A stretch of DNA of 64,000 bases from Dehalococcoidia bacterium (GCA_965226875.1 OZ245439.1:711081-775080); one strand, 5' to 3'. Shown: positions 6,975-63,838, counted from the first letter of the stretch. The notes: generated from the letters alone by a model not told the origin. Numbers and translations: made by a program.

Positions 6975-7122
6975 CTAAAGCCAAGGTGAAATGTACATAT
7001 CGCTAGACCGCACTATCGGTGCCCTCCCAGTTGGGGCCTGAAGGTGATATGAGGTGCCGTGGAGTCCTTGCGGTCATCGTCAATCTCCCGGAAATGCACA
7101 TCCCACCTTGGTATTGGTTTAG
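6975..7122 (-). repeat. R155 element (TA-flanked TIR element), divergent interior
   Basis: CTAAAGCCAAGGTGAAATGTACAT...ATGCACATCCCACCTTGGTATTGGTTTAG. Termini match the R155 family; the left terminus lacks about 5 nt. Confidence 0.8.
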
Positions 7123-7734: not shown

Positions 7735-7890
7735 GATTGCTCTCCAAAAGTTTCGTTAGTTTGGGGTTGCGGGGCTAATTGTAACAGCCCCAAAACTGGA
7801 ATGGTAAGGTAGCGCCGACGATCAAGAAGAGACCTGCTACTGATCTGCGGCTGTAGTATCAGGGTCCTTTCGGTAGTCTTCAAGACCCTC

Positions 7891-7922
7891 GAAATGTAGA
7901 TCCCACCGTGGCTTTAGTTTAG
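7891..7922 (-). repeat. Solo R155 terminus
   Basis: GAAATGTAGATCCCACCGTGGCTTTAGTTTAG equals one R155 end without a partner within 150 bp. Confidence 0.7.
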
Positions 7923-9063: not shown

Positions 9064-9657
9064 ATGCAGTACCTGCCCTCACGGGAAGCCGCCAAGATAT
9101 TGGGCCTCCATCCTCACACCCTCCGACGATACGCCGACGCCGGAATCATCCCCTCCATCAAAACCCAGAGCGGACAACGACGATATGACGTCCAAACCTA
9201 CCTCGGTAACTCCAAACCCAGCTCCACCGTCTGCTATTGCCGGGTCTCCAGCCACAAACAGACCGGCGACCTTCAACGTCAGGTCGCTTTCATGCAGCAA
9301 CACTATCCCGACGCCGAGGTAATCACCGATGTCGCCTCAGGACTCAACTACCGGCGGAAAGGACTTGCGTCCCTACTGGAGCGACTTCATCGCGGAGATA
9401 AACTCACACTTGTGGTTGCCTACCGGGACCGCCTCGCCCGCTTCGGCACCGAGCTCATCGAGCAGATGCTCCAGCAAAACGGTGGCGAACTCCTGGTTCT
9501 CAACCAGCGAGATCTCAGCCCCCCAGAGGAACTCACCCAGGATCTACTCGCCATCCTTACTGTCTTCTCTGCCAGAGCCAACGGACTCCGCAGGTACCGG
9601 AAGGAAATCCAAGAGGATAAGAATCTACCCAGACCGGCAGCAGAAAGCCAAGCTTAA
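9064..9657 (+). CDS. tnpA: IS607-type serine recombinase TnpA (MerR-like HTH plus resolvase catalytic domain)
   Basis: 197 aa: LPSREAAKILGLHPHTLRRYADAGIIP (HTH), VCYCRVSSHKQ (catalytic Ser), VVAYRDRLARFG. Confidence 0.9.
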   Translation: MQYLPSREAAKILGLHPHTLRRYADAGIIPSIKTQSGQRRYDVQTYLGNSKPSSTVCYCRVSSHKQTGDLQRQVAFMQQHYPDAEVITDVASGLNYRRKGLASLLERLHRGDKLTLVVAYRDRLARFGTELIEQMLQQNGGELLVLNQRDLSPPEELTQDLLAILTVFSARANGLRRYRKEIQEDKNLPRPAAESQA

Positions 9658-10767
9658 ACTCTGGTTCGACGCCGCCCGGTTCACCTACAACCGCACCATC
9701 GAACTCCTCAACTCGGACGGAGCCCCAAAAGCCTCCTGGCTCGGGGTCAAGAAGGACATCCTATCCAGTCTCCCCGAATGGACCAAGCCCGCTCCCTATG
9801 AGGTGAAGAGCAACGCCGTCCGAGAGGCCTGCCTGGCGGTCAGCGCGGTCAAGAAATTCAACCGGGAACTTGCCGCCGACCAAGGCAAGGGCATCAGAAA
9901 AGAGCAGACCTATGCGAGAGCACGTTTCCGCTCCCGGAAGAATCCCAGCCAGACCATTTTCATCCACGCATCCGCCCTCAGCCACCGGGGCGTCTATCAC
10001 ACCCTCCTGGGACCACTGAAAAAGAGGGAACCAATACCCCACGCCCACGGGGACGCCAAGCTGACACTGAGGCACCACCAGTACCACCTCAGCGTCCCCT
10101 TCAAAAGAATGGGACCCCACCTGGGTGAGAGCAATCTGCAGCCGAAGGCACCAGACCAAGTCAAAGTGGTTGCCCTCGACCCGGGAGTGAGAAACTTCAT
10201 CGCATGGTTCTCCGAAGACGGCTGCGGAAAGCTGGGAGAAAACGATTTCGGACGAATCCAGAGGCTGTGCCAGCACCAGGACAACCTGTTGTCCCGTGCT
10301 ACGCAGGCGCCGTCAGGAAAACGGCGCAACATGCGCAGGGCCGCCGAAAGAATGACCGTCAGGATTCAGAACCTGATAAATGAGCTCCACCACAAGACCG
10401 CCCGGTACCTCGTGGATAACTTCGACGTCATCCTCCTGCCCGCCTTCAAATCATCCGAAGTCGTGATCAGGGGACATCGCAAGATCAGATCAAAGACCGT
10501 CCGCAACCTGCTCAACTACGCCCATCACCGGTTCAGGAACTTCCTCCAGCACAAGGCTGCCGAAAACGGCAGGACCGTGCTGGTGGTCAACGAGGCCTAC
10601 ACCTCGAAGACCGTGAGCTGGACCGGAGAAATAATCCATAACCTGGGCGGACGCAAAACGGTCAGATCCTCCGATGGACAGAGGATGGACCGGGACATCA
10701 ACGGCGCACGGGGGACTTTCCTTCGTGCTTTGGGAGATACCCCCTTCCTGAGACAACACGTCTCTGG
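9329..10767 (+). pseudogene. tnpB: TnpB (IS607 type), C-terminally truncated; ORF reads through into unrelated DNA
   Basis: Same protein as 44885-46354 up to ...FLRQHVSG. The 676-aa ORF 9329-11359 is a read-through artefact running antisense to the MFS gene. Confidence 0.85.
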
Positions 10768-10795
10768 ACGACATTGCCGGGCGGAAACGGGCTCC

Positions 10796-12000
10796 TCAGC
10801 CGGTGTTCACCCGCAACTGCCTGGCAAACACGGCCATAAGCAGCACGCTGCCGGTCGTGAGAGCGAGACACAGGTAGCCGATTCCCTCGTAGCCCACGCT
10901 GGCCAGAAGAGCGCCGGAGAGCCCGGCCCCAAGCACTCCGCCCACGAAGTTGCCGACACCGATAGTGCTGGCTCCCGTAGCCTTGGATTCTCCGGAATAC
11001 TCCGTCGTGGCAGCGACCATCACTGGCGCCAGGACGCTCAACAAGCCCGATCCCGCCGTTGCCAGGGCCACCGCAGGCCAGAGCCCGAAATCGACGGAGA
11101 AGAAGAGGAATACACAGACACCCCCTGCGGCCGTGGTAATGGCCATCAGTGCGACTCGATAACTCCTCGTGGCCACGAATCCGGCGGCGTAGCTCCCTAT
11201 CACCTGGGCTGCCGCAGCAATCAGCAGCGGCAGGGCCACGAATCCCACGCTCAAATCGTAAGCCTGTATCAAATAGGCGGCGAAGAAGCTGATCAGACCC
11301 CAGTAGGCCAGCCGCTGGGTCACAATCACCGTCAGGGCGACCCGAAAAAAACTCATTGAAAGCAGCGACCAATACCTGGCAAAGAATATGAACTGGCGAC
11401 TGCGTTCCCTGCTGTCCCGGGGATACCAGACCACGCTTAAGAGTAACGCCGTTGCCAGCAACAAACTCGCCAGTACAAAAGTGAACCGCCAGCCCCACAA
11501 GTCCGCGAACAGGGCCACCAGCGGGACGGTGATGGCCGAGGGGTCAACACGACTGTTCCCATAATGCCGCCGACGGCCTGGGCCCTCCTGGCGGGGGAAA
11601 TGATGTCGGACACCACCCCCACCGATGTGGGCGGTATGGTTCCTCCTCCCAATCCGCCCAGCACTCTGAGCGCGAGGAACACCTCGATGTTGGGCGCGAA
11701 GGCCGACCCTAGCACTGAGACCAGGACCATCAGCACCCCTGCGAGAGTCACCGGGCGGCGGCCGAAGGAATCGGCCAGCGGCCCCACGGCGACTATGGAA
11801 ACCGCCAATGCCGCGAAGGACGCCGTATTCAATTGCCCTGAGACTGCCACTGAAACGTCAAGGTCGGTTGCAATCTCAACCAGGAGCGCCGGAACCATCA
11901 CAATCGCGGTTTGGGTGCTTAGAATGGTGAGGGAGAGTACGAAGTAGAACCAGGCCTTGTTTACCTCTTTGCCCTCTGTCTGCGCCGCTTGGGTGGTCAT
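10796..12000 (-). pseudogene. MFS transporter, frameshifted (paralog 1)
   Basis: ORFs 11437-12000 and 10796-11518 together align along the whole length of the intact paralog 12057-13259. The frame breaks near 11540. Confidence 0.8.
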
Positions 12001-16606: not shown

Positions 16607-16900
16607 GTGCGGGTCATATCCAAGAGAACACTACGGCTATTTTGGCAGCGTCGTCCTGAAACCGAGGCATCGCTGCAAGCGTGGTTTCGGGAAGTTGAGA
16701 AAGAGGACTGGAGCACGCCGGCTCAGGTCATTGCGCGCTATCCCAATGCAAGCATAGTGGGGGCGGACCGGGTGGTATTCCGAGTCCGGCATAAGGACAT
16801 TCGAATCGTTGTCAGGGTGTTCTACCCGGGGCGACAGGTTTACATCCGCTTCGTTGGCACCCACACCGAGTATGACCGCATCAATGCAGGGGAGGTATAA
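16607..16900 (+). CDS. higB: HigB-family type II toxin (RelE superfamily)
   Basis: 97 aa, GTG start: RVISKRTLRLFWQRRPETEASLQAWFREVEKEDWSTPAQV...VYIRFVGTHTEYDRI matches the HigB_toxin family closely. Confidence 0.85.
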   Translation: MRVISKRTLRLFWQRRPETEASLQAWFREVEKEDWSTPAQVIARYPNASIVGADRVVFRVRHKDIRIVVRVFYPGRQVYIRFVGTHTEYDRINAGEV

Positions 16901-16902
16901 CT

Positions 16903-18147
16903 ATGGTACAAGTCCGGGCGATTCGCTCAGAAGATGACTACGCCGCTGCGCTGGCCCGGATCAACGAACTCATGGACGCACTGTCCGGTCCAGATGGCCA
17001 GATTGAGGACGCGGACAACCCGCACCGGGTAGATCTGGATGCTCTGACCGACCTCGTCGAATTCTATGAGGAGCGGAACCATCCCATCGGCTACCCCGAC
17101 CCGGTTTCCGCCATCAGGTTCCGGATGGACCAGGCCAACCTGACCCACCGCGACCTGGTGCCCTTCATTGGTAGCCGGGCCAAGGTCTCCGAGGTTCTCT
17201 CAGGGAAACGGGCCATTACCATGTCCATGGCCAGGGCACTTCACCAGCACCTGGGAATACCCGCCGAAGTGCTGCTGAGGGAACCAGGAGGCAGTTTGCC
17301 TGAGGATCTACCGAGCATTGACTACTCCAGGTTTCCTCTGAACGACATGGCCAAGGCTGGCTGGATTCCCAGGGTGCGAAACCTGAGAGAGCAAGCCGAG
17401 GAATTGGTAACTGGCCTGATGGAACAGGCTGGAGGGCGGCGGTTTGCTGCCGCTCCCCTATACCGGAAGAACGACAGCCGCAGAATCAACGCCAAGACTG
17501 ACGACTACGCCCTCCGGGCGTGGTGCTGGCGAGTACTGGCACAGGCCAGGGACGATGAGCCTACCGTGGAGTACAACGCCGACGCCGTCACCCCCCAGTT
17601 CATGCGACAGCTGGCGCGTATGAGCGCTCTGGGGAACGGCCCTATACAGGCCAGAGATCTCCTTGGTCAGCACGGGGTGTCCCTGGAGTACGTGCCCCAC
17701 CTACCGAGGACGCACCTGGACGGCGCGGCCCTGCCTTTGCCGGACGGTAGGCCGGTGGTAGGGGTCACTCTGCGGTATGACCGGATAGACAACTTCTGGT
17801 TCACCCTGCTGCACGAGCTTGGCCACGTTGGCTCTCATATGGGCCACTGTGGCGAGGATGCGGGTTTTGTCGACGACCACAGTCTTCGGAGGGTCCAACC
17901 TGAAGGGGCAGACACCTTGGAACAGGAGGCGGACCAGTTGGCCCAGGATGCCCTGATACCCCCCGAGGTATGGGACGACGGCGGCATCCTGGAGGATCCC
18001 AGTCCAATGGCGGTCCTGCAAATGGCATGGGAGGCCCAGGTGCACCCGGCGATCATCGCAGGCCGGATTCGGCATGAGCGGAGCAATTACAGGCTCCTCT
18101 CGCAGTTCGTGGGCACCGGTGAGGTGCGGCGGCAGTTTGTCGACTAA
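16903..18147 (+). CDS. HigA-like HTH antitoxin fused to an ImmA/IrrE-type metallopeptidase domain
   Basis: 414 aa. N-terminal ~120 aa are HigA-like (...SEVLSGKRAITMSMARALHQHLGIPAEVLL). The C-terminal domain has the HEXXH motif LLHELGHVGSH. The stop TAA lies inside the adjacent R155 terminus. Confidence 0.75.
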   Translation: MVQVRAIRSEDDYAAALARINELMDALSGPDGQIEDADNPHRVDLDALTDLVEFYEERNHPIGYPDPVSAIRFRMDQANLTHRDLVPFIGSRAKVSEVLSGKRAITMSMARALHQHLGIPAEVLLREPGGSLPEDLPSIDYSRFPLNDMAKAGWIPRVRNLREQAEELVTGLMEQAGGRRFAAAPLYRKNDSRRINAKTDDYALRAWCWRVLAQARDDEPTVEYNADAVTPQFMRQLARMSALGNGPIQARDLLGQHGVSLEYVPHLPRTHLDGAALPLPDGRPVVGVTLRYDRIDNFWFTLLHELGHVGSHMGHCGEDAGFVDDHSLRRVQPEGADTLEQEADQLAQDALIPPEVWDDGGILEDPSPMAVLQMAWEAQVHPAIIAGRIRHERSNYRLLSQFVGTGEVRRQFVD

Positions 18148-18295
18148 ACCAAAGCCAAGGTGGGATGTACATTTAAGTGGCGATGATGATCAGCCGGGTT
18201 TCGCGGGTTAAATCCTCTCATCCGTACCTGGAGAATGACCCGTCCTCGTCGCTTGTCTCCCACCGTCTGCGCATTTCACCTTGGCTTCGGTTTAG
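18144..18295 (+). repeat. R155 element, subtype a
   Basis: CTAAACCAAAGCCAAGGTGGGATGTACATTT...CTGCGCATTTCACCTTGGCTTCGGTTTAG. Identical to 33605-33756 and inverted at 19525-19676. Confidence 0.9.
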
Positions 18296-19525
18296 TAGAC
18301 CACCATCATTGAAACGATGGCTGGTAAAATGTGAGAGGATGGCAGCCAAAGGAAAAATGTTGGGAAGTGGGGGTGGATGTGATGGTGAAGAAATACCGTG
18401 TGGCGCTGGCTGAGGAGGAGCAACAGGAACTGAAGGGGCTGGTGGGCCGGGGGCGGGCGGCAGCTTACCGGCAGACCCACGCCCGCATCCTGCTGCTCTG
18501 CGATGAGAACCAGGCCAACGGGTCCATGAAGGACGAGGAGATAGCCCGGGCCCTCAAGGTGGGAACCGCCACGGTGGAACGGGTGCGCCGCCGCTGTGTG
18601 GAGGAGAGTCTGGAGAGGTCCCTGGGACGCAAGGAGCAGCTTAACCGCCGCCCCAAGAAGCTGGACGGCCATGATGAAGCCCAGTTGATTGCCTTGGCCT
18701 GCTCCCAACCTCCGGAGGGCCGGGCCTCCTGGACGCTGCAACTGCTGGCGGATCGGCTGGTGGAATGCGAGATAGTGGACAGCATCAGCACCGAAACCGT
18801 GCGCCAGACACTGAAAAAAACGAACTCAAGCCTTGGCTGAAAGAGTGCTGGTGCATCCCGCCACAGGGCAACGCCGAGTTCGTCTGCGCCATGGAGGACG
18901 TGCTGGAGGTCTACCACCGTCAATTCGGGGACAACGAGGTGCTGGTGTGCCTGGACGAAACCAGCAAACAGCTGGTGAAGGAGACCCGCCAGCCCCTCCC
19001 GCCGCAGCCCAGGGCTGCCATGGCGTACGATTATGAATACCAGCGCAACGGAGTGAGCAACCGGTTCATGCTATTCGCCCCCTTGGAGGGGTGGCGGCGG
19101 GTGGAGGTCACCGAGCGACGCACCCGGACCGATTGGGCGCGAGTGGTACGGAAACTGGTGGATGAGGACTACCCCGACAAGGAGCGGATAGTGCTGGTGA
19201 TGGACAACTTGAACACCCATCATCCGGCTTCTCTGCACCAGGCTTTTGAGCCGGCCGAAGCGAGGCGTATCGCTGAACGGCTGGAGATTCATTACACGCC
19301 GAAGCACGGGAGTTGGCTCAATATGGCCGAGATCGAACTGGGAGTTCTGGCCCGGCAATGCCTGGACCGCCGGATTCCCGGGCAGGTAGTCCTGGAACAA
19401 GAGACCAAGGCGTGGCAGAACCAACGAAACCGTGACTCAATACGGGTGGACTGGCGCTTCACCACCAAGGACGCCCGCATCAAACTGAGGTCGCTATACC
19501 CATCACTCCAACGATGACAGACTAC
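18295..19525 (+). mobile_element. IS630-family element type A, copy 1 (1231 bp)
   Basis: Ends GTAGACCACCATCATTGAAACGATGG / CCATCACTCCAACGATGACAGACTAC (imperfect IR), flanked by TA (18293-94, 19526-27). Near-identical copies at 22170-23400 and 27680-28910. Confidence 0.9.
18331..19517 (+). CDS. IS630-family transposase, two frames joined by -1 frameshift at A7 (18814-18820)
   Basis: ORF1 ...VRQTLKK ends 18840. ORF2 continues KKNELKPWLKECWCIPP...DNLNTHH...GSWLNMAEIELGVL. The slippery run is conserved in all A and B copies. Confidence 0.85.
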
Positions 19526-19676
19526 TAAACCGAAGCCAAGGTGAAATGCGCAGACGGTGGGAGACAAGCGACGAGGACGGGTCATTCTCCAGGTACGGAT
19601 GAGAGGATTTAACCCGCGAAACCCGGCTGATCATCATCGCCACTTAAATGTACATCCCACCTTGGCTTTGGTTTAG
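19525..19676 (-). repeat. R155 element, subtype a (inverted)
   Basis: Reverse complement of 18144-18295; shares TA junctions with IS630-A and IS630-B. Confidence 0.9.
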
Positions 19677-20882
19677 TACCGTTTCCAGAAAGTCTTACAA
19701 TCATAAAGAAGATCAGGTAGGCTTGAGTAAAATCCTTTAGCGAGGCCGTACCTGACATGCCTGTCTCCAAATACAAAGTCGAACTGACCCAATCCGAACG
19801 CTCCGCTCTGATTGAAACATCCGGCCGTGGCAAGCCGTTGGCCCGCACGGTAAAGCGGGCCCTTGCGCTGTTGAAAGCTGACGAAGGACTCTTAGACCGC
19901 GAGGTAGCTGAGGCGGTTTCGCTCAGCGCCGCCACTGTTGCCTGAGTGCGGAGACGGTTCGTCGAGGAGGGACTGGAAGCCGCAATCAACGACCGGCCAC
20001 GGTCAGGCCGTGAGCGCAAGCTGAGCGGCAGACAGGAAGCGCACCTCGTCGCCATCGCGTGCAGCAATGCGCCCGAAGGACACACGAACTGGACGCTCCA
20101 TCTGCTGGCGGACAAGGTGGTGGAGCTGGAGTTTGCCGGGAGCATCTCCCTGGAGACGGTGCGCCAGATACTCAAAAAAACGAACTCAAGCCGTGGAAGA
20201 AGAAAGAATGGTGCATTCCCAAGGTGAGCGGGGAGTTCGTCGCCCGGATGGAGGATGTGCTGGACCTGTACCACGAAGAGTATGACCGGGAGCGTCCCGT
20301 GGTATGTTTCGACGAGACCTCCAGGCAGTTGGTCGAGGACGTGAGGCCACCCATCAAAGCCAAGCCCGGACGGGTGGAACGCTATGACACTGAGTACCAG
20401 CGAAACGGGACCCGGAACCTGTTCATGTTCTGTGAACCGAAGGGCGGATGGAGACACGTCGAAGTGACCGAGCGCCGCACTGCTGTGGACTTTGCTCACC
20501 AGATGCGCTGGCTGGTTGACCAGGCGTACCCCCACGCCAGGGTCGTCCGGCTGGTGTTGGACAATCTCAATACCCACAAGTTGGGCTCGCTCTACGAAGC
20601 ATTTGGAGCGTCCGAGGCGCGCCGCATAGCCAAACGCCTAGAGTTTCAACACACACCCAATCACGGAAGCTGGCTGAACATGGCCGAGATCGAGTTGAGC
20701 GTCTTCAGCAGGCAGTGTCTGAACCGCCGGATCGGCGATGAAGCGTTGCTGAAACGGGAGGTCGCAGCGCTCGAACGCGAGCGCAACGATGCTGGCGCCA
20801 TCATAGACTGGCGGTTCTCCACCCGGGACGCTCGCAGTAAGCTCAAACATGTATATCCAATAGAATTAAATTGAAACGGTAC
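19676..20882 (+). mobile_element. IS630-family element type B, copy 1 (1207 bp)
   Basis: Ends GTACCGTTTCC.../...GAAACGGTAC, TA flanks (19674-75, 20883-84). About 90% identical to 40886-42116. Confidence 0.9.
19757..20874 (+). pseudogene. IS630-B transposase with nonsense codon (TGA 19943-19945) plus the family A7 frameshift site (20174-20180)
   Basis: Copy 2 has AGA (Arg) where this copy has TGA. Otherwise colinear. Confidence 0.85.
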
Positions 20883-21032
20883 TAAACTAAAGCCAAGGTG
20901 GGATGTACATTTAAGTGGCGATGATGATCAGCTGGGTTATGCCGGTGAATCCCTCTCATCCGTACTTGGAGAATGACCCGGCTCCGTCGTTTGCCCCCAC
21001 CATCTGCGCATTTCACCTTGGCTTTAGTTTAG
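20882..21032 (+). repeat. R155 element, subtype b
   Basis: CTAAACTAAAGCCAAGGTGGGATGTACATTT...CTGCGCATTTCACCTTGGCTTTAGTTTAG. Confidence 0.9.
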
Positions 21033-21130
21033 TAGTCGAACATCTTTGAAATGAGGGTTAGTTGAGGTTAGCCTGATTGCGTGGCAATATTCGGGAAATG
21101 CTGCTCTCCCGTCAGGCTGCCAATTACTTA

Positions 21131-21990
21131 GAGCCTGTCTACGATCTTTGCAATATGTTAAGTTGAGGCTGTTACCAGAGGGGGTAATCATGTCTCATTC
21201 CTATTCCAGCGACATCAGCCGGGAACAGTTTGCCCGGATTCTTCCCTATTTGGAGTCGGCCCGCCGCCGGACCAAGCCCCGCACCGTGGACCTGTACGAC
21301 GTTTTCTGCGGGGTGCTCTATCTCCTGAAAAGCGGGTGCCAGTGGCGGATGCTGCCTGCGGACTTCCCAGATTGGCGCACCTGCTACAAGTATTTCCGGC
21401 AATGGAGCGAGCGACCCGACCCGGCGAAGTATTCCATTCTGGAGCAGGTCTTAAAAAAAATCGGTTGGCACAGCCCGACGAAGCAATGGTCGGAAAAAAC
21501 GGACCAGCTTCTGTATCGTGGACTCCCAGAGCGTCAAGAACACCGACAGCGCCGAGAACAAGGGCTATGACTCGGGCAAGAAGGTGTCTGGAATCAAGCG
21601 CCACATCGCCGTGGACACTCAGGGGTTGCCCCATGCGATTCACGTGACCACCGCCAACGTTACCGACCGTGCTGGGGCTTTGGCTATGTTTGACCGGCGC
21701 CGGGCCAACCTGAGGCAGGTGCAGAATGTGCTGGTGGATGGGGGATACACCGGGAAACCCTTTGCCACGGCGGTGCAGAGCCTGCTGGGAGCCTCGGTGG
21801 AAGTGGTGAAGCGCAACGAACTGCACACTTTCGTGGTGCTGCCGAAACGATGGGTGGTGGAGCGGTCTTTCGGCTGGCTGGAGAAGTGCCGCCGCCTCTG
21901 GAAGAACTGCGAGAGAAAGCTCAATACCAGCCTGCAAATGGTGGTTCTCGCCTTCGCGGTGCTAATCCTGAAGAGATTGTAAACAGGCTC
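21131..21990 (+). mobile_element. IS5-family (IS427-like) element type a, copy 1 (860 bp)
   Basis: IRs GAGCCTGTCTACGATC / GATTGTAAACAGGCTC; 3-bp direct repeat TTA (21128-30, 21991-93). Identical copy at 31617-32476. Confidence 0.9.
21190..21982 (+). CDS. IS5-family transposase split at an A8 run (21453-21460)
   Basis: ORF1 MSHSYSSDISREQFARILPYLE...CQWRMLP...EQVLKK. ORF2 (+1 frame) KSVGTARRSNGRKKRTSFCIVDSQSVKNTD...DGGYTG...ERSFGWL. An A7 run would give one continuous frame. Confidence 0.8.
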
Positions 21991-22019
21991 TTATACATCA
22001 ATTCAAAGCTGTTGGTCTA

Positions 22020-22170
22020 CTAAACTAAAACCAAGGTGAAATGCGCAGATGGTGGGGGCAAACGACGGAGCCGGGTCATTCTCCAAGTACGGATGAGAGG
22101 GATTCACCGGCATAACCCAGCTGATCATCATCGCCACTTAAATGTACATCCCACCTTGGCTTTAGTTTAG
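22020..22170 (-). repeat. R155 element, subtype b (inverted)
   Basis: Termini and interior match 20882-21032 in reverse. Confidence 0.9.
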
Positions 22171-23400
22171 TAGTCTGTCATCGTTGGAGTGATGGGTATA
22201 GCGACCTCAGTTTGATGCGGGCGTCCTTGGTGGTGAAGCGCCAGTCCACCCGTATTGAGTCACGGTTTCGTTGGTTCTGCCACGCCTTGGTCTCTTGTTC
22301 CAGGACTACCTGCCCGGGAATCCGGCGGTCCAGGCATTGCCGGGCCAGAACTCCCAGTTCGATCTCGGCCATATTGAGCCAACTCCCGTGCTTCGGCGTG
22401 TAATGAATCTCCAGCCGTTCAGCGATACGCCTCGCTTCGGCCGGCTCAAAAGCCTGGTGCAGAGAAGCCGGATGATGGGTGTTCAAGTTGTCCATCACCA
22501 GCACTATCCGCTCCTTGTCGGGGTAGTCCTCATCCACCAGTTTCCGTACCACTCGCGCCCAATCGGTCCGGGTGCGTCGCTCGGTGACCTCCACCCGCCG
22601 CCACCCCTCCAAGGGGGCGAATAGCATGAACCGGTTGCTCACTCCGTTGCGCTGGTATTCATAATCGTACGCCATGGCAGCCCTGGGCTGCGGCGGGAGG
22701 GGCTGGCGGGTCTCCTTCACCAGCTGTTTGCTGGTTTCGTCCAGGCACACCAGCACCTCGTTGTCCCCGAATTGACGGTGGTAGACCTCCAGCACGTCCT
22801 CCATGGCGCAGACGAACTCGGCGTTGCCCTGTGGCGGGATGCACCAGCACTCTTTCAGCCAAGGCTTGAGTTCGTTTTTTTCAGTGTCTGGCGCACGGTT
22901 TCGGTGCTGATGCTGTCCACTATCTCGCATTCCACCAGCCGATCCGCCAGCAGTTGCAGCGTCCAGGAGGCCCGGCCCTCCGGAGGTTGGGAGCAGGCCA
23001 AGGCAATCAACTGGGCTTCATCATGGCCGTCCAGCTTCTTGGGGCGGCGGTTAAGCTGCTCCTTGCGTCCCAGGGACCTCTCCAGACTCTCCTCCACACA
23101 GCGGCGGCGCACCCGTTCCACCGTGGCGGTTCCCACCTTGAGGGCCCGGGCTATCTCCTCGTCCTTCATGGACCCGTTGGCCTGGTTCTCATCGCAGAGC
23201 AGCAGGATGCGGGCGTGGGTCTGCCGGTAAGCTGCCGCCCGCCCCCGGCCCACCAGCCCCTTCAGTTCCTGTTGCTCCTCCTCAGCCAGCGCCACACGGT
23301 ATTTCTTCACCATCACATCCACCCCCACTTCCCAACATTTTTCCTTTGGCTGCCATCCTCTCACATTTTACCAGCCATCGTTTCAATGATGGTGGTCTAC
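22170..23400 (-). mobile_element. IS630-family element type A, copy 2
   Basis: Reverse complement of copy 1; same 1231-bp length; TA flanks. Confidence 0.9.
22178..23364 (-). CDS. IS630-A transposase (two frames, -1 frameshift)
   Basis: ORFs 22855-23364 and 22178-22930 translate identically to copy 1. Confidence 0.85.
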
Positions 23401-23550
23401 TAAACTAAAGCCAAGGTGAAATGCGCAGATGGTGGGGGCAAACGACGGAGCCGGGTCATTCTCCAAGTACGGATGAGAGGGGTTCACCGGCATAACCCAG
23501 CTGATCATCATCGCCACTTAAATGTACATCCCACCTTGGCTTTAGTTTAG
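23400..23550 (-). repeat. R155 element, subtype b (inverted)
   Basis: Same orientation as 22020-22170; a few substitutions. Confidence 0.9.
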
Positions 23551-23855
23551 ACGTCAACAACCGCATAGCCTCAATAAGATGCTACCGAAAAATTGGGAGG
23601 CAGTCGCTTGGCGGGAAACATAAGCAGAACGGCAAAACAGGAGTTTCTGGCAAAAACACGGGATCGCTGACAAGCGTTTTCCAGAGTGGACAGGAGCCGT
23701 ATCCTTGACGAATTTACCGGGTGGCCGGCCATCAACGCAAGCATGGTCTCAGGCTTCTGGCTCAATCCGAGGACGGCTGCAGGAAGGTCCGTGCTTGGGA
23801 AGCATCAGACCACCTGGACATGCACCGTGCAGAGGCTGCAATTTCCATCCAACCC

Positions 23856-27604: not shown

Positions 27605-27680
27605 CTAAACCAATACCAAGGTGGAATCTACATAGACCCTGACGCGAATCCTTGCATTTTTCAGCTGGGCTTTGGTCTAG
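27605..27680 (+). repeat. R155 element, internally deleted and degenerate (76 bp)
   Basis: CTAAACCAATACCAAGGTGGAATCTACAT...GGGCTTTGGTCTAG. Confidence 0.65.
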
Positions 27681-28910
27681 TAGACCACCATCATTGAAAC
27701 GATGGCTGGTAAAATGTGAGAGGATGGCAGCCAAAGGAAAAATGTTGGGAAGTGGGGGTGGATGTGATGGTGAAGAAATACCGTGTGGCGCTGGCTGAGG
27801 AGGAGCAACAGGAACTGAAGGGGCTGGTGGGCCGGGGGCGGGCGGCAGCTTACCGGCAGACCCACGCCCGCATCCTGCTGCTCTGCGATGAGAACCAGGC
27901 CAACGGGTCCATGAAGGACGAGGAGATAGCCCGGGCCCTCAAGGTGGGAACCGCCACGGTGGAACGGGTGCGCCGCCGCTGTGTGGAGGAGAGTCTGGAG
28001 AGGTCCCTGGGACGCAAGGAGCAGCTTAACCGCCGCCCCAAGAAGCTGGACGGCCATGATGAAGCCCAGTTGATTGCCTTGGCCTGCTCCCAACCTCCGG
28101 AGGGCCGGGCCTCCTGGACGCTGCAACTGCTGGCGGATCGGCTGGTGGAATGCGAGATAGTGGACAGCATCAGCACCGAAACCGTGCGCCAGACACTGAA
28201 AAAAACGAACTCAAGCCTTGGCTGAAAGAGTGCTGGTGCATCCCGCCACAGGGCAACGCCGAGTTCGTCTGCGCCATGGAGGACGTGCTGGAGGTCTACC
28301 GCCGTCAATTCGGGGACAACGAGGTGCTGGTGTGCCTGGACGAAACCAGCAAACAGCTGGTGAAGGAGACCCGCCAGCCCCTCCCGCCGCAGCCCAGGGC
28401 TGCCATGGCGTACGATTATGAATACCAGCGCAACGGAGTGAGCAACCGGTTCATGCTATTCGCCCCCTTGGAGGGGTGGCGGCGGGTGGAGGTCACCGAG
28501 CGACGCACCCGGACCGATTGGGCGCGAGTGGTACGGAAACTGGTGGATGAGGACTACCCCGACAAGGAGCGGATAGTGCTGGTGATGGACAACTTGAACA
28601 CCCATCATCCGGCTTCTCTGCACCAGGCTTTTGAGCCGGCCGAAGCGAGGCGTATCGCTGAACGGCTGGAGATTCATTACACGCCGAAGCACGGGAGTTG
28701 GCTCAATATGGCCGAGATCGAACTGGGAGTTCTGGCCCGGCAATGCCTGGACCGCCGGATTCCCGGGCAGGTAGTCCTGGAACAAGAGACCAAGGCGTGG
28801 CAGAACCAACGAAACCGTGACTCAATACGGGTGGACTGGCGCTTCACCACCAAGGACGCCCGCATCAAACTGAGGTCGCTATACCCATCACTCCAACGAT
28901 GACAGACTAC
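27680..28910 (+). mobile_element. IS630-family element type A, copy 3
   Basis: 1231 bp, TA flanks; one amino-acid difference (YRRQF vs YHRQF) from copies 1 and 2. Confidence 0.9.
27716..28902 (+). CDS. IS630-A transposase (two frames, -1 frameshift)
   Basis: ORFs 27716-28225 and 28150-28902. Confidence 0.85.
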
Positions 28911-29061
28911 TAAACTAAAGCCAAGGTGAAATGCGCAGATGGTGGGGGTCAAACGACGGAGCCGGGTCATTCTCCAAGTACGGATGAGAGGGATTCACCC
29001 GCGCAACCCAGCTGATCACCATCGCCACTTAAATGTACATCCCACCTTGGCTTTAGTTTAG
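28910..29061 (-). repeat. R155 element, subtype b-like (inverted)
   Basis: Termini conserved. Its TTA (29058-60) supplies the stop codon of the downstream minus-strand gene. Confidence 0.9.
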
Positions 29062-29477: not shown

Positions 29478-29789
29478 CGTAGTCTATCTCCTTGGGAGTA
29501 ACGGCAGTTTGTAAGGCTCTGTCCATCGAAACCATCCGTCTTGATGGGGACCAGTATTCGAGAGCACTCTCTGCCATATGTAACTCTTTCCTTGCATCAT
29601 TTCTGGATCCTGGTTTCCGCACATCATGGGAGCGTAGGCCTCGTCGCATTGTGCGGCCCTTGAAGTAAACCAAAGCCAAGGCGGGATGTGCCATTTGCGG
29701 GGATCGGCCGAGCTTCGGCGAGAGTCAGCGTGCCTGCTGGGTTTCCTGATTCCGAAGTGGCCTTCGCCTTTGCCGGGTCTGATTCGCTT

Positions 29790-30131
29790 TCATCGCAGGA
29801 GGGTGCCTATCATCCCCAAAACCTGTTCCACCACTCGCGGAGTTGTTTGGGTTGCTAAACCCGCCTGCCTCGCGCGCCAGTCCAGGCTCTTGATGTGGTC
29901 GGACAGCACCACGCCGGTGATGGCGCCTCCATGCGGGAGGGGTACTTCAAAGGGGTAACCCTTCGCTGCCGTGGTAACCGGACAGAATAGGGCCAAGCCT
30001 GTCCTGTCGTTATAGCTCCTGGGACTCAGGACCAGCGCCGGCCGGCGGCCCGCCTGCTCGGGCCCGGCATGAGGGCTGAAGTTCAGCCAAACGATGTCGC
30101 CTCTGTCGGGAACATAGGGTGCACTCACCAT
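29790..30131 (-). CDS. mazF: MazF/PemK-family toxin
   Basis: MVSAPYVPDRGDIVWLNFSPHAGPEQAGRRPALVLSPRSYN...FCPVTT... Overlaps mazE by 7 nt. Confidence 0.85.
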   Translation of the reverse strand: MVSAPYVPDRGDIVWLNFSPHAGPEQAGRRPALVLSPRSYNDRTGLALFCPVTTAAKGYPFEVPLPHGGAITGVVLSDHIKSLDWRARQAGLATQTTPRVVEQVLGMIGTLLR

Positions 30132-30364
30132 GTTTCGTTGCCTTGGGCTGAGCCTGTATCCCATTCAGAATGCAGGTTATCTGTGGTGACCCGGGACAAC
30201 AATTCATCCAGGTCGTATGCCCTCTTGGTCAGGGTCAAACGTTCACCGTCCGTGGTCATCTCAATTGCCGACCCGACGTGGACGCCCCACTCTTCTGCAA
30301 GGGGTTTTGGTATCCGTACCGCGAGGCTGCTACCCCACCGGGCTACGTGCGATTGCGTTCCCAT
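30125..30364 (-). CDS. mazE: AbrB/MazE/SpoVT-family antitoxin
   Basis: 79 aa; VARWGSSLAVRIPKPLAEEWGVHVGSAIEM is the swapped-hairpin AbrB-type motif. Confidence 0.8.
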   Translation of the reverse strand: MGTQSHVARWGSSLAVRIPKPLAEEWGVHVGSAIEMTTDGERLTLTKRAYDLDELLSRVTTDNLHSEWDTGSAQGNETW

Positions 30365-30546
30365 TTGAGATCCTCACTGTCGCAGATAGATATATAATAT
30401 ATATCCAACTGCGGGCGTGTTGTCCAGCGTGTGATTGCGGGTGCGGAGCAGTGGTACCGCCTGCAATCGAGGGCTGAAAAGCTGCTGCGGCACTTCCAGC
30501 CCCATCGCCAATCCCTCCCTGGTGCACATCTCACCTTGGCTTCGGT

Positions 30547-30927
30547 TTAGGTCGTATCCTCTTCCAAGATGATCTTCAGCAACTGGTCGACCGCACGTTT
30601 GGTCGAACGCCTGTCCGCTGCCAAGCGAGTTTCGTCCAGGTGTCCGTGCAGGAAGTGCTGCTGGAGCTGGGCCGCGGCTTCGAAGTCCTGCCGCCAGCCG
30701 GGCTGGTGTTGTTTGTCCGCCAACCTGTCGGCCACATCTTTCATGTGTTGCTCGCTACAGCATTCCCACCCGTGGACCATTGCCACGGCGATCAGGCCGC
30801 GGGCGAAGGCCCCCCAGAGCATGTCGGCGGCAATCATCTGGTCTGTCATGCGTTCACTCGTCTCGAACCCCTGGTCGGAGAGCTCGACCAGTTCCCTGAT
30901 GCGTGCGGTCTGCTCGTCTGTACTCAT
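30547..30927 (-). CDS. Hypothetical helical protein (possibly HEPN/PaREP1-like)
   Basis: 126 aa; weak resemblance only (...AAAQLQQHFLHGHL...). The stop codon TAA is supplied by the R155-type terminus at 30547-49. Confidence 0.35.
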   Translation of the reverse strand: MSTDEQTARIRELVELSDQGFETSERMTDQMIAADMLWGAFARGLIAVAMVHGWECCSEQHMKDVADRLADKQHQPGWRQDFEAAAQLQQHFLHGHLDETRLAADRRSTKRAVDQLLKIILEEDTT

Positions 30928-31443: not shown

Positions 31444-31616
31444 CCTCGAGGCAGGTAACTCGGCTTTGTCGTGCTGTTGATCTGGTCGGTCTCAAACTTT
31501 GTTTCGTTTAGGCGATGCAAAGGGCCCAGCCAATGCTGGGCCTCGTACGGTGATAGCTCTGCGCTCGGCGTTGACAACTGTGGTGGTGGTGGGCGCCCGT
31601 GGTGGGAGATTTCTAA

Positions 31617-32476
31617 GAGCCTGTTTACAATCTCTTCAGGATTAGCACCGCGAAGGCGAGAACCACCATTTGCAGGCTGGTATTGAGCTTTCTCTCGCAG
31701 TTCTTCCAGAGGCGGCGGCACTTCTCCAGCCAGCCGAAAGACCGCTCCACCACCCATCGTTTCGGCAGCACCACGAAAGTGTGCAGTTCGTTGCGCTTCA
31801 CCACTTCCACCGAGGCTCCCAGCAGGCTCTGCACCGCCGTGGCAAAGGGTTTCCCGGTGTATCCCCCATCCACCAGCACATTCTGCACCTGCCTCAGGTT
31901 GGCCCGGCGCCGGTCAAACATAGCCAAAGCCCCAGCACGGTCGGTAACGTTGGCGGTGGTCACGTGAATCGCATGGGGCAACCCCTGAGTGTCCACGGCG
32001 ATGTGGCGCTTGATTCCAGACACCTTCTTGCCCGAGTCATAGCCCTTGTTCTCGGCGCTGTCGGTGTTCTTGACGCTCTGGGAGTCCACGATACAGAAGC
32101 TGGTCCGTTTTTTCCGACCATTGCTTCGTCGGGCTGTGCCAACCGATTTTTTTTAAGACCTGCTCCAGAATGGAATACTTCGCCGGGTCGGGTCGCTCGC
32201 TCCATTGCCGGAAATACTTGTAGCAGGTGCGCCAATCTGGGAAGTCCGCAGGCAGCATCCGCCACTGGCACCCGCTTTTCAGGAGATAGAGCACCCCGCA
32301 GAAAACGTCGTACAGGTCCACGGTGCGGGGCTTGGTCCGGCGGCGGGCCGACTCCAAATAGGGAAGAATCCGGGCAAACTGTTCCCGGCTGATGTCGCTG
32401 GAATAGGAATGAGACATGATTACCCCCTCTGGTAACAGCCTCAACTTAACATATTGCAAAGATCGTAGACAGGCTC
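31617..32476 (-). mobile_element. IS5-family (IS427-like) element type a, copy 2
   Basis: Identical 860 bp in reverse; 3-bp direct repeat TAA (31614-16, 32477-79). Confidence 0.9.
31625..32417 (-). CDS. IS5-family transposase split at the same A8 run
   Basis: ORFs 32037-32459 and 31625-32089 translate identically to copy 1. Confidence 0.8.
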
Positions 32477-32582
32477 TAAGGGTCCTTGGTCCGGTGTTCC
32501 GTCCGGGGAGCCGGGTTGGGGAGTGCTGCTGGAGCTCTTCATCCCTAGTCAGGAGGTGTCCGAGGCGTCAAGCCCGCTGCTG

Positions 32583-33604: not shown

Positions 33605-33756
33605 CTAAACCAAAGCCAAGGTGGGATGTACATTTAAGTGGCGATGATGATCAGCCGGGTTTCGCGGGTTAAATCCTCTCATCCGTACCTGGAGAATGAC
33701 CCGTCCTCGTCGCTTGTCTCCCACCGTCTGCGCATTTCACCTTGGCTTCGGTTTAG
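33605..33756 (+). repeat. R155 element, subtype a
   Basis: Identical to 18144-18295. Confidence 0.9.
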
Positions 33757-34618: not shown

Positions 34619-35326
34619 CTATGACGTAGACGGAGCTCCTACAGGGTCAAGGGTGAGGTCATAGCCGGTGAGATCGCGGATCCGTTCCCACAGTGCATCG
34701 CGGTCTACCTGCAGGTCCTGCCGCATGGACGGCACGTCGTCGATCGGGTCGGTGACGACCACTTCGCATCCGCAGTCGGAATACTGGTCGATGCGGTCAA
34801 GGTCGCTCTGGAAGATGTGGCTCCAGCCGGCGTCGTGCTGGGCGATGGAACGGGCCATCTCCGCCACGGAGTCCCTGGGGTAGACGGCACCGAGGATGGA
34901 CAGGAGCGCTGCGCCGGAGTTCCACAGCAGCCAGTGGGCGTTTCGTCCGTGAACGGTGTTCACGTTGAACTTGCTTGCTGGACGCGGGGGCCAGAACCGG
35001 GGGATGTCGGCCAACATGCGGTTTTTACTGGCCGCCTGACGCAGGCGCTTGGTGGTGATCAGCTCCCACTCGTTGGAGACATCGCCGTCGTGGCGGTAGC
35101 GGTGCTCGTTGCCCGGTTCCTTGCAGAAGACTAGTGCCGTTTCCAGATAGATTTGTTGATATTGGAAAGCTGCCTCCAACTCTGGATTCCTGCTTGCGCG
35201 AGAATGACTAACAGATGAAACAGATATCCGGTATAAGGCATATTCAGGTGGAAACGGTACTAGTTTAAGTTGTAAACCCTGGCCGCGTTCCCACCGGCTA
35301 TCTTGGCCCGTTCCTCCAGGGTGCAT
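34619..35326 (-). CDS. Hypothetical protein; start uncertain
   Basis: ORF only. Its 5-prime 66 nt overlap the upstream gene end. Confidence 0.35.
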   Translation of the reverse strand: MHPGGTGQDSRWERGQGLQLKLVPFPPEYALYRISVSSVSHSRASRNPELEAAFQYQQIYLETALVFCKEPGNEHRYRHDGDVSNEWELITTKRLRQAASKNRMLADIPRFWPPRPASKFNVNTVHGRNAHWLLWNSGAALLSILGAVYPRDSVAEMARSIAQHDAGWSHIFQSDLDRIDQYSDCGCEVVVTDPIDDVPSMRQDLQVDRDALWERIRDLTGYDLTLDPVGAPSTS

Positions 35327-40737: not shown

Positions 40738-40886
40738 ACTAAGGCCAAGGTGGGATCGACATTTCTGAGATGATGACGGCAGGTCAGCGCTGCCAACTAA
40801 AGCTTTACCGTCCGCACATTGAAGTCAGTCCTCCCCCGGTCACCGAGTATCCTTCGAATGCGCATTTCACCTTGGCTTTGGTTTAG
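40734..40886 (+). repeat. R155 element, subtype c
   Basis: Conserved termini. Interior differs from subtypes a and b but is related to 44358-44509. Confidence 0.9.
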
Positions 40887-42116
40887 TACCGTTTCCAGAT
40901 AGATTTACAAGAATATGAGAAGGCAGCCATACTTGGGCATGATCTTTCTGTGGGGGAGTATCCAGACATGGCTGCCATCAAATATAAAGTCGAGCTGGCT
41001 GAATCCGAACGCTCCCGTCTCAATGAGGTTTCCCACCGGGGCAAACCGTCAGTCCGCACCGTCAAGCGGGCGCTGGCGTTGCTCAAAGCGGATGAAGGAC
41101 TTCGGGACGCTGAGATAGCCGGTGCGCTTTTGATCAACGCCGCCACCGTTGCCAGAGTGCGGAAGCGGTTCGTCGAGGAAGGACTTGAGGCCGCCATCAA
41201 TGACAAGCCACGGCCGGGCCGTGAGCGCAAGCTGAGCGGCAGACAGGAAGCGCACCTCGTCGCCATCGCATGCAGCAATGCGCCCGAAGGACACACGAAC
41301 TGGACGCTCCATCTGCTGGCGGACAAGGTGGTGGAGCTGGAGTTTGCCGGGAGCATCTCCCTGGAGACGGTGCGCCAGATACTCAAAAAAACGAACTCAA
41401 GCCGTGGAAGAAGAAAGAATGGTGCACTCCCAAGGTGAGCGGGGAGTTCGTCGCCCGGATGGAGGACGTGCTGGACCCCGTATCCAGTACGGGGCAGGCT
41501 CTTTATCACGAAGAGTATGACCGGGAGCGTCCGGTGGTGTGTTTCGACGAGACCTCCAAGCAGTTGCTCGGGGACGTGAGGCCGCCCGTCAAAGCCAAGC
41601 CCGGACGGGTGGAGCGCTATGACACCGAGTACCAGCGAAACGGGACCCGGAACCTGTTCATGTTCTGTGAACCGAAGGGTGGGTGGAGGCACGTCGAGGT
41701 GACCGGGCACCGCACTGCCGTTGACTTCGCGCACCGGATGAAGTGGCTGGTGGACGAGGCATATTCTGACGCCACGGTGATCCGACTGGTGTTGGACAAT
41801 CTCAACACCCACAAGTTGGGCTCGCTCTACGAAGCGTTTGCACCGTCCGAGGCGCGCCGCATAGCCAAGCGCCTGGAGTTTCACCACACACCCGTTCACG
41901 GAAGCTGGCTGAACATGGCTGAAATCGAGTTGAGCGTATTCAGCAGGCAGTGTCTGAACCGCCGGATCGGCGATGAAGCGTTGCTGAGACGGGAGGTCGC
42001 AGCACTCGAACGCGAGCGCAACGATGCTGGCGCCATCATAGACTGGCGGTTCTCCACTCGGGACGCTCGCAGTAAGCTCAAACATGTCTATCCAATAGAA
42101 TTAAATTGAAACGGTA
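40886..42116 (+). mobile_element. IS630-family element type B, copy 2 (1231 bp)
   Basis: TA flanks (40884-85, 42117-18). Carries a 24-bp in-frame insertion relative to copy 1. Confidence 0.9.
40950..42109 (+). CDS. IS630-B transposase (two frames, -1 frameshift at A7)
   Basis: ORFs 40950-41438 and 41270-42109; no nonsense codon in this copy. Confidence 0.8.
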
Positions 42117-42378
42117 CTAGCCACCACAAGATTCACGCGATTCGCAAAATTGCAATGATGGAATTATGCTTTTCATAGTGGTAAATTCTTGTATGCAAAT
42201 TTCGTCCCATAACGCTAAAATGTGGCACCTTCCCGTTAATCGTTCAAACTGCTGCGGACATACCAAGCTTCCGCATGAAACCGAGCTTCAATCTCAGCGG
42301 CCTGCAAGTAGAATCCGGACACCTCCATTGGAACCATAGGCACTACAAATATATACGGCAGATGAAAAGGGGTTCGCC

Positions 42379-44232: not shown

Positions 44233-44358
44233 GTAGTCCGAAATCTTTGGAATGATGAGTTGATCGGTACAGGACTTTCCCTCGGGCATACTGGGCTTAT
44301 GAAGACGATCCCCAAGCAATCTGGCATTTTACACGTCATTTCAAGGATGTTGGTCTAC
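44233..44358 (+). mobile_element. 126-bp IS630-A-derived MITE (intact)
   Basis: GTAGTCCGAAATCTTTGGAATG...CATTTCAAGGATGTTGGTCTAC; TA flanks (44231-32, 44359-60). Confidence 0.8.
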
Positions 44359-44509
44359 TAAACTAAAGCCAAGGTGGGATCTACATTTCTGAGATGATGA
44401 GAGCAGATCAGCGCTGCCAAGAGAAGCTCTCCCGCCCGCTCATTGAAGCCACTCCGCCCTCGTTGTCAGGTATCCTTCAAATGCGCATTTCACCTTGGCT
44501 TTGGTTTAG
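44358..44509 (+). repeat. R155 element, subtype c-prime
   Basis: Conserved termini; interior related to 40734-40886. Confidence 0.9.
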
Positions 44510-63792: not shown

Positions 63793-63838
63793 GTAGACCA
63801 CCATCATTGAAACGATGGCTGGTAAAATGTGAGAGGAT
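63793..63838 (+). mobile_element. IS630-A copy 4, first 46 bp only (interrupted by IS21)
   Basis: GTAGACCACCATCATTGAAACGATGGCTGGTAAAATGTGAGAGGAT preceded by TA, then the IS21 end. Confidence 0.8.

Follow-up and report, generated by a model that had tools for sequence, protein, structure and literature searches.

In a 64,000-nt stretch of DNA from a Dehalococcoidia bacterium (GCA_965226875.1 OZ245439.1:711081-775080), referred to here as the window, nine mobile elements lie directly against one another at positions 18145-23549. The array consists of insertion sequences (ISs) of the IS630 family, designated IS630-A and IS630-B, of a miniature inverted-repeat transposable element (MITE) of IS630 type, MITE-A, and of copies of another MITE, R155, which alternates strictly with the others. 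With a probability of roughly 0.7, the array has accumulated from IS630-family elements that entered a single ancestral CTAG, for which the ordinary choice of the TA in CTAG as a target and the end sequences of the elements are sufficient. The pile-up would thereby be an ordinary consequence of known IS630 behaviour, and no new targeting system, transposition chemistry or element class is revealed.

The layout was established by reading the sequence from 17900 to 23800 and by repeat finding. The element order, orientations and coordinates given in a preceding sequence-only reading, which had described a pile-up built by serial insertion, were confirmed, and so was its statement that neighbours have a single TA in common at every junction. 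Ten such TAs were located, starting at 18145, 18293, 19526, 19674, 20883, 21030, 22021, 22168, 23401 and 23548. The features are as follows (TIR, terminal inverted repeat; ORF, open reading frame).

18144-18146: left half of the putative original CTAG (C plus TA), doubling as the stop codon of the upstream gene
18147-18292, + strand: R1, R155a MITE of 146 bp with R-type TIRs (AACCAAAGCCAAGGTG...), 100% identical to R2 and R7
18295-19525, + strand: IS630-A copy 1, 1231 bp, with G...C termini; its two ORFs are linked through a -1 shift in the A7 run 18814-18820
19528-19673, - strand: R2, R155a MITE, inverted
19676-20882, + strand: IS630-B, 1207 bp, termini GTAC...GTAC, in-frame TGA in the N-terminal ORF
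20885-21029, + strand: R3, R155b MITE
21032-22020, + strand: MITE-A, IS630-type; interrupted by an IS5-type element and about 126 bp long when this is discounted
21131-21990, + strand: IS5-family element, 860 bp, with a TTA duplication at 21128-21130 and 21991-21993
22023-22167, - strand: R4, R155b MITE, inverted; Rc is found at the same junction in the same-species loci L078 and L081
22170-23400, - strand: IS630-A copy 2, inverted, 100% identical to copy 1
23403-23547, - strand: R5, R155b MITE, inverted; replaced by an R155a/R155b chimera in L086
23548-23550: right half of the putative original CTAG (TA plus G), pairing with 18144-18146

The outer flanks of the array read ...GTCGAC-TA and TA-GACGTC..., and therefore the entire 5.4 kb occupies one former C-TA-G. 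This single original CTAG would have been the former stop codon of the upstream gene of 414 aa (16903-18147), which now ends in TAA and would have ended in TAG while the site was empty.

For comparison, the IS630-A protein was scanned against the GTDB species-representative genomes, a set that does not include the window's own genome. This resulted in 77 loci (L001-L077), all from Dehalococcoidia metagenome-assembled genomes (MAGs) except L013, which is from a Paracoccaceae MAG, and the best IS630-A match had 86% protein identity. In addition, 23 same-species loci, drawn from several ENA metagenome assemblies, were obtained by exact-protein look-ups with flanking genes, and ten more by a look-up with the 208-aa gene call of IS630-A; an exact-sequence look-up of the 250-aa IS630-A ORF gave no match. 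The ends of IS630-type elements were set by tblastn and a TIR search requiring TAGT...ACTA, yielding about 90 copies and 169 unique ends. Empty sites were searched for in 24 same-species sequences by removing single elements, or all pairs of elements, and rejoining the flanks; two genuine empty sites were found, the remaining matches being of repeat against repeat.

Near-identical repeats of 1.2 kb that lie in both orientations are well known to lead to misassembly, and one short-read scaffold (L110), in which R155a is joined to the right flank of the IS630-A copy of L104/L105, pairs flanks in a possibly chimeric way and was set aside. A mis-join or collapse of dispersed repeats is nevertheless extremely improbable as the origin of the array. 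The identical array is present in four loci from independent ENA assemblies (L082, L087, L098 and L100), and long contigs of ERZ25074053, ERZ26694896 and ERZ28763718, the last with two contigs including the near-complete ctg125357 (4.0 Mb), have the same order, orientations and junctions, next to coherent strain variants. The locus is also present in a near-complete contig of ERZ21829562 (ctg258074l, 4.35 Mb). Because the array is identical in contigs from independent samples, it is not an assembly artefact, and the repeat collapse that the sequence-only reading had kept as an alternative was dismissed.

The frameshift-joined protein of IS630-A scores 207 bits on the NCBIfam IS630 model NF033545 (cut-off 100), and Pfam matches to DDE_3 and HTH_32 are present in its ORFs, as is a DDE_3 match in the IS630-B ORF. 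Both elements belong to the IS630 family by transposase model, TIRs, TA duplication and CTAG preference; the TIRs are about 25 nt long in the roughly 90 IS630-type copies. At the A7 run, a -1 shift fuses both IS630-A ORFs into a product reading ...TLKK-NELKPW..., and in the 86%-identical relatives the match covers 378 residues in 1133 nt, where a single frame would need 1134. This pattern suggests that the frameshift is conserved and programmed and not a sign of decay. IS630-B has an in-frame TGA at about 19941-19943 in the N-terminal (helix-turn-helix) frame, and the window copy is probably defective. The element inside MITE-A is assigned to the IS5 family by NF033580 (141.7 bits, cut-off 110) and by DUF4096 and DDE_Tnp_1 matches, and a second copy, 99.8% identical, lies within 31608-32480. 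In L078, L081 and L086, MITE-A is intact and the TTA is single (empty site CCAATTACTTATACATC in L078), while it is duplicated in the window.

R155 is a non-coding element of 145-148 bp with its own TIRs and a TA on both flanks. A candidate parent, IS-R (L083:11244-12482, 1239 bp), was found in a sister strain, where it occupies the R155 site after the upstream gene with the flanks C-TA...TA-G. The IS-R transposase scores 187 bits on NF033545 (cut-off 100) and, together with its TIRs and TA flanks, this places IS-R in the IS630 family; its protein cannot be aligned with that of IS630-A, though both match the IS630 model. Over some 28 bp, each R155 end agrees with its IS-R counterpart, the end-specific parts included, and at least 25 full-length relatives of IS-R, at 72-83% identity, are present in the loci L001-L077. 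Because both of its ends match those of IS-R and the IS-R transposase fits the IS630 model, R155 is, judging from these matches, a MITE of IS-R, which is a second IS630-family lineage unrelated to IS630-A. R155a, R155b, R8, R9, Rc and Rshort are all small, non-coding and multi-copy, with IS-matching TIRs, as is characteristic of MITEs, and target duplication is evident from the empty site of R7; the MITEs are 70-148 bp long and the window contains 13 R-family elements. An Rfam search matched no family in the window, R155 included, and in single-strand folding the pairing of R155 is confined to the TIRs (z = -2.45). From the TIRs, we infer that R155, as well as an 881-bp mazEF element described below, would be mobilised by IS-R.

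Both lineages have the same target. At flanks other than R155, the base adjoining the TA of IS630-type ends is C in 144 of 150 cases, while the 19 R155-adjacent ends have T at that base, save for the Rshort variant, which has C. For R-family ends, C adjoins the TA at 121 of the 123 unique ends. Therefore, both lineages use the classical IS630 site, the TA in CTAG; an extended target consensus past the C/G beside the TA was found for neither. A preference of IS630 for the TA of CTAG has been described (Tenzen & Ohtsubo 1991, as cited in PMC2170065), and TA duplication has been demonstrated biochemically for ISY100 (PMC2170065).

The consequences of insertion differ between the lineages. IS630-A, IS630-B, the IS630-C remnant and their MITEs have the termini TA-GTAG...CTAC-TA, and as these begin with G and end with C, C-TA-G becomes C-TA-[G...C]-TA-G, with two CTAGs. 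The R lineage, comprising IS-R, the MITEs R155a, R155b and R155c, a 70-bp derivative and the 881-bp mazEF cassette, has the termini TA-AAC...GTT-TA, and its A...T ends turn CTAG into CTAA and TTAG, so that the site is lost. The locus had been called self-propagating in the sequence-only reading because each insertion recreates the site; this is right for junctions formed by G...C ends, which regenerate the target, and wrong for R155 ends, which erase it. CTAG is also the most depleted palindromic tetranucleotide, with 43 occurrences in the 64 kb of the window (0.19 of expected) and 1726 in 1.59 Mb of the relatives (0.30). TTAG, CTAA and TATA are scarce as well, both in the window and in L001-L077.

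From these properties, the proposed course of events can be outlined. Two unrelated IS630-family lineages, G...C and R, coexist in this Dehalococcoidia population and both enter the TA of CTAG. Each G...C insertion makes two CTAGs out of one, each in DNA where a further insertion would do no harm, while other CTAGs are scarce (observed/expected 0.19-0.30) and would lie mostly within genes. As the junction CTAGs would be harmless and CTAG is scarce elsewhere, later insertions would favour existing junctions and thus give TA-sharing arrays, until an R element caps a junction by turning its CTAG into CTAA and TTAG. In the window, a G...C array of IS630-A, IS630-B, MITE-A and inverted IS630-A would have formed first where the upstream gene ends, in its stop codon; all five CTAG junctions would then have been filled by R155 copies, and the IS5-type element would have entered MITE-A at TTA later. 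Neutrality, and not active recognition, would lie behind the enrichment of insertions at junctions.

The contacts between R-family and IS630-type elements are strongly non-random and far above chance. The window has 18 IS630-type ends, about 13 of which are in contact with an R-family terminus, and 1564 TA dinucleotides in all. R-family ends abut a YAC-TA terminus in 65 of 123 cases, against an expected 9% or so, and still do so in 23 of the 54 cases that lie more than 2 kb from the fetching IS. In the relatives, 16 of 163 IS630-type ends abut R. Because so many R ends abut YAC-TA while so few IS630-type ends abut R, it looks as if R is the chooser in these contacts. Same-species IS630-A copies at eight loci have seven ends on R, six in an open CTAG and one on another YAC end. 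IS-IS junctions of the form ...CTAC-TA-GTAG... without R155 occur in the relatives L001, L044, L052, L064, L076 and L077, and a sister-strain array (L094) has three open IS-IS junctions. Such junctions are expected from the CTAG rule, as are frequent R ends on G...C termini, while R-TA-R junctions are not expected, and none was found among the 123 R-family ends.

Further R-family and IS630-type elements of the window bear on the order in which the two lineages arrived.

27608-27677, + strand: Rshort, 70-bp R-family derivative whose right terminus ends in C; the junction TA (27678-27679) is within a CTAG
27680-28910, + strand: IS630-A copy 3; sister strains lack both it and R6 (empty site)
28913-29058, - strand: R6, R155b2 MITE that caps IS630-A copy 3 at its right junction; L080 and L090 have this variant in the opposite orientation
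33608-33753, + strand: R7, R155a MITE in a CTAG beside an IS630-type remnant (from 33756), with an empty site in L092
40737-40883, + strand: R8, R-family MITE of another subfamily, 60% identical to R155a with the same TIRs, abutting an IS630-B relative (40886-42117)
44233-44358 and 44361-44506: an IS630-type MITE and R9, with the common TA 44359-44360

The IS630-A copies 1-3 are 99.9-100% identical to each other, R1, R2 and R7 are the same, and R155a and R155b are 88% identical. The IS630-type ends at 27680, 33756 and 40886 had been described as captured by isolated R155 copies, and all three contacts exist: the TA at 27678 joins Rshort to IS630-A copy 3, that at 33754 joins R7 to the IS630-type remnant, and that at 40884 joins R8 to the IS630-B relative, the far junction of which (42117-42120) is an open CTAG.

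Two of these contacts could be ordered by comparison with sister strains. In L092, the sequence reads ...GCTGAACTAC-TA-GCTGTAATGG..., with the IS630-C remnant directly on the flank and no R7. The window, L088 and L090 thus have CTAC-TA-[R155a]-TA-GCTG where L092 has CTAC-TA-GCTG, and R7 arrived after its IS630-type neighbour. In L086, L089, L092, L095, L097 and L099, a single TA is kept in Rshort...GGTC-TA-GTCCATTTG (GGTC-TA-GTCC), while in the window this TA is occupied by IS630-A copy 3 and R6, and at the left junction the CTAG at 27677 has stayed open. This is the sole documented IS630-A insertion beside an R element and, as the Rshort variant terminus ends in C, the target was a canonical CTAG. 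The TA duplications in these empty and filled pairs support serial, TA-duplicating insertion into junction TAs, as the sequence-only reading had claimed. The order of events it had proposed to check in sister genomes came out against it at R7; the insertion of IS630-A copy 3 did take place beside an R variant, and in a CTAG.

These data bear directly on the model from which the work started, in which the TA beside an R155 terminus is itself the preferred target, R155 or head-to-head R155 dimers come first and IS630-type elements are captured afterwards. This model is quite improbable. It has in its favour that R155-IS630 contacts are hugely over-represented and that IS630-A, with R6, did enter the TA beside an R-family terminus once, but the R variant used in that case ended in C and offered CTAG. 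The canonical R155 junction has TTAG/CTAA in place of the preferred tetranucleotide, at odds with the C at 144 of 150 non-R flanks. Removing IS630-A and one TA does leave an R155-TA-R155 palindrome, which is arithmetically true, but no such state exists in the 123 R-family ends. Moreover, R7 came after its neighbour, R occupants vary by strain where IS positions are constant, and six same-species IS630-A ends are in plain CTAG without R. A repeat-specific IS would use a fixed, repeat-defined site and rarely others, whereas plain CTAG with no R155 alongside accounts for about 90% of the IS630-type ends found in relatives and for half of the IS630-A ends in the same species. The preference for R155 termini is therefore not borne out.

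Among strains, the positions of the IS630 elements are constant and the R occupant of a junction varies in variant, orientation or family member. The junction next to the upstream gene is occupied by R155a, R155b1, R155b2 or IS-R, that between MITE-A and inverted IS630-A holds R155b or the unrelated 126-bp Rc (L078/L081), and that between IS630-A and the PNPOx gene holds R155b2 in either orientation. The R155b2 copies at L080:12625-12773 and L090:6419-6567 are 99% identical to 28913-29058 of the window and in the opposite orientation, which could reflect an in-situ flip, excision and re-insertion, or a second insertion. The simplest reading of this variation is that open IS junction CTAGs have been filled repeatedly and independently by R elements.

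It is also conceivable that filling is active, with the IS-R transposase recognising IS630-type termini next to CTAG (e.g., ..TAC-TA-G) beyond what scarcity and neutrality provide, but this is regarded as unlikely. R elements fill or cap junction CTAGs about 8-20 times as often as other CTAGs, all five array junctions are capped, about half of the R ends are on YAC-TA termini, also among those distant from the fetched IS, and the RUP MITE of pneumococcus has been reported to favour IS elements (as summarised in PMC2229807). Against such recognition, R flanks other than IS ends have no extended consensus beyond C at -1, many IS junction CTAGs are still open and, by a rough estimate, the fill rates become similar if about one in eight generic CTAGs lies in dispensable DNA. 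We ascribe the higher fill rate at junctions to the location of most other CTAGs within genes. A bolder form of the idea, in which R155 and IS-R are hyper-parasites that seek out the CTAGs bordering other IS630 elements and, by capping, freeze the arrays and brake their growth, is quite improbable. If it were true, the low frequency of CTAG might partly be upheld by selection against IS630 target sites.

Recombination within the array is indicated by L086, in which MITE-A is inverted (L086:13207-13334, compared with 21032-22020 of the window) between inverted R155b copies and the last R155 of the array (L086:14715-14862) is a chimera of R155a and R155b; in addition, L080 has a deletion between IS630-A copies 1 and 3. 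These products raise the possibility that blocks such as R155a-IS630-A-R155a (inverted) move as a whole by composite transposition, with homologous recombination shuffling the rest. R1 and R2 are 100% identical, with their outer ends oriented correctly for the IS-R transposase, and a segment with PNPOx and mazEF is bounded by R-type ends, with outer flanks that vary. This explanation is nonetheless very unlikely for the array, as the R155a-IS630-A-R155a block was recovered at no other locus, other IS630-A copies have different R flanks or none, and recombination cannot yield precise single-TA junctions or the TA duplication of the empty and filled pairs.

Several points weigh against accretion at a single CTAG as set out here. 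Active recombination between R copies means that some differences in occupants may be conversions and not independent insertions, and the empty site in L092 could in principle be due to precise excision. An uncapped junction between the upstream gene and IS630-A, or between IS630-A and IS630-B, was recovered in no strain, so that the order within the array is deduced from the end sequences and the other sites. Ends are capped far more often in the window (about 13 of 18) than in the relatives (about 10%), the capping of all five junctions demands a high rate of R155 insertion, and it is a rough estimate that neutrality and CTAG scarcity suffice. Also, the loci of the relatives were fetched around IS630-A-like copies, which biases them to IS-rich DNA.

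The window contains other members of both lineages. A 127-bp MITE with IS630-B-type ends (GTGCCGTTTCC...GGAAACGGTAC) at 35134-35260 has an open CTAG on each side and is thus uncapped. Of a fourth IS630-A copy, the first 46 nt only are present at the end of the window (63793-63838); in L102, an IS21-type element interrupts this copy, which has an open CTAG at each outer junction. Two further R-family elements are located at 6975-7121 and about 7780-7921, the left end of the former being replaced by an IS4-like element's terminus (...TTCGGTGGATTCGGG), and an R155b copy in L078 and L081 is split by the same IS4-like family.

An 881-bp element (29668-30548, with TAs at 29666-29667 and 30549-30550) has R155-type TIRs and a mazE/mazF pair but no transposase; its MazF scores 127.9 bits on NF007386 and has a PemK Pfam match, and an empty site for this element was not found. 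In its R-type TIRs, TA flanks, mazEF cargo and lack of a transposase, it is similar to the mobile insertion cassettes (MICs), and it looks like a putative MIC of the IS-R lineage. PNPOx, Rshort and this element form one segment with outer flanks that vary among strains. The 414-aa protein encoded upstream of the array has a weak Peptidase_M78/ImmA match and its gene is preceded by a HigB-like toxin gene (region about 16607-18147); the two likely form a toxin-antitoxin pair. Farther upstream (9329-11359) are large ORFs of TnpB/IS605 type, including a 676-aa gene call that matches OrfB_IS605 and Cas12f1-like_TNB. The whole region is an IS-dense island that is variable between strains.

Known systems provide close parallels. 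IS630 of Shigella sonnei (Tenzen et al. 1990; Tenzen & Ohtsubo 1991, as cited in PMC2170065) has the DDE transposase, short TIRs, CTAG target and TA duplication in common with the elements studied here; unlike in that system, several divergent lineages and their MITEs coexist here, the G...C termini rebuild CTAG and arrays grow. ISY100 of Synechocystis, a bacterial member of the Tc1/mariner/IS630 group, transposes by cut-and-paste, the TA being a target duplication and not belonging to the element (PMC2170065), which matches the empty and filled pairs; it was reported to use TA with little context, whereas the elements here have C/G beside the TA in about 96-98% of cases. The RUP MITE of Streptococcus pneumoniae is like R155 in its size (about 100-150 bp), IS630-family TIRs, TA targets and association with ISs. 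For RUP, mobilisation by IS630-Spn1 and preferential insertion in ISs have been proposed (Oggioni & Claverys 1999, as summarised in PMC2229807). RUP was described inside ISs, inactivating transposase genes, whereas R155 is at the outer junction TA, leaves the IS intact and removes the CTAG. Repeat-specific IS systems of the REP/PU type are unlike the situation here, where most IS630-type ends are in plain CTAG. Our literature search returned no description of TA-sharing IS630 arrays, of hot spots made by an element's own ends or of the distinction between regenerating and capping, but TA-sharing arrays and this distinction follow directly from the known properties of IS630.

The locus is chiefly useful as a clear worked example and as an aid to annotation. 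It provides a simple rule for the clustering of IS630 elements, in which G...C ends rebuild CTAG and A...T ends erase it. This rule aids the reading of IS-dense regions of uncultured Chloroflexota, in which such arrays, with their MITEs, are easily taken for assembly errors or for a special recognition system. In addition, the flips, deletions and chimeras observed indicate that the arrays are hot spots of strain-level rearrangement.

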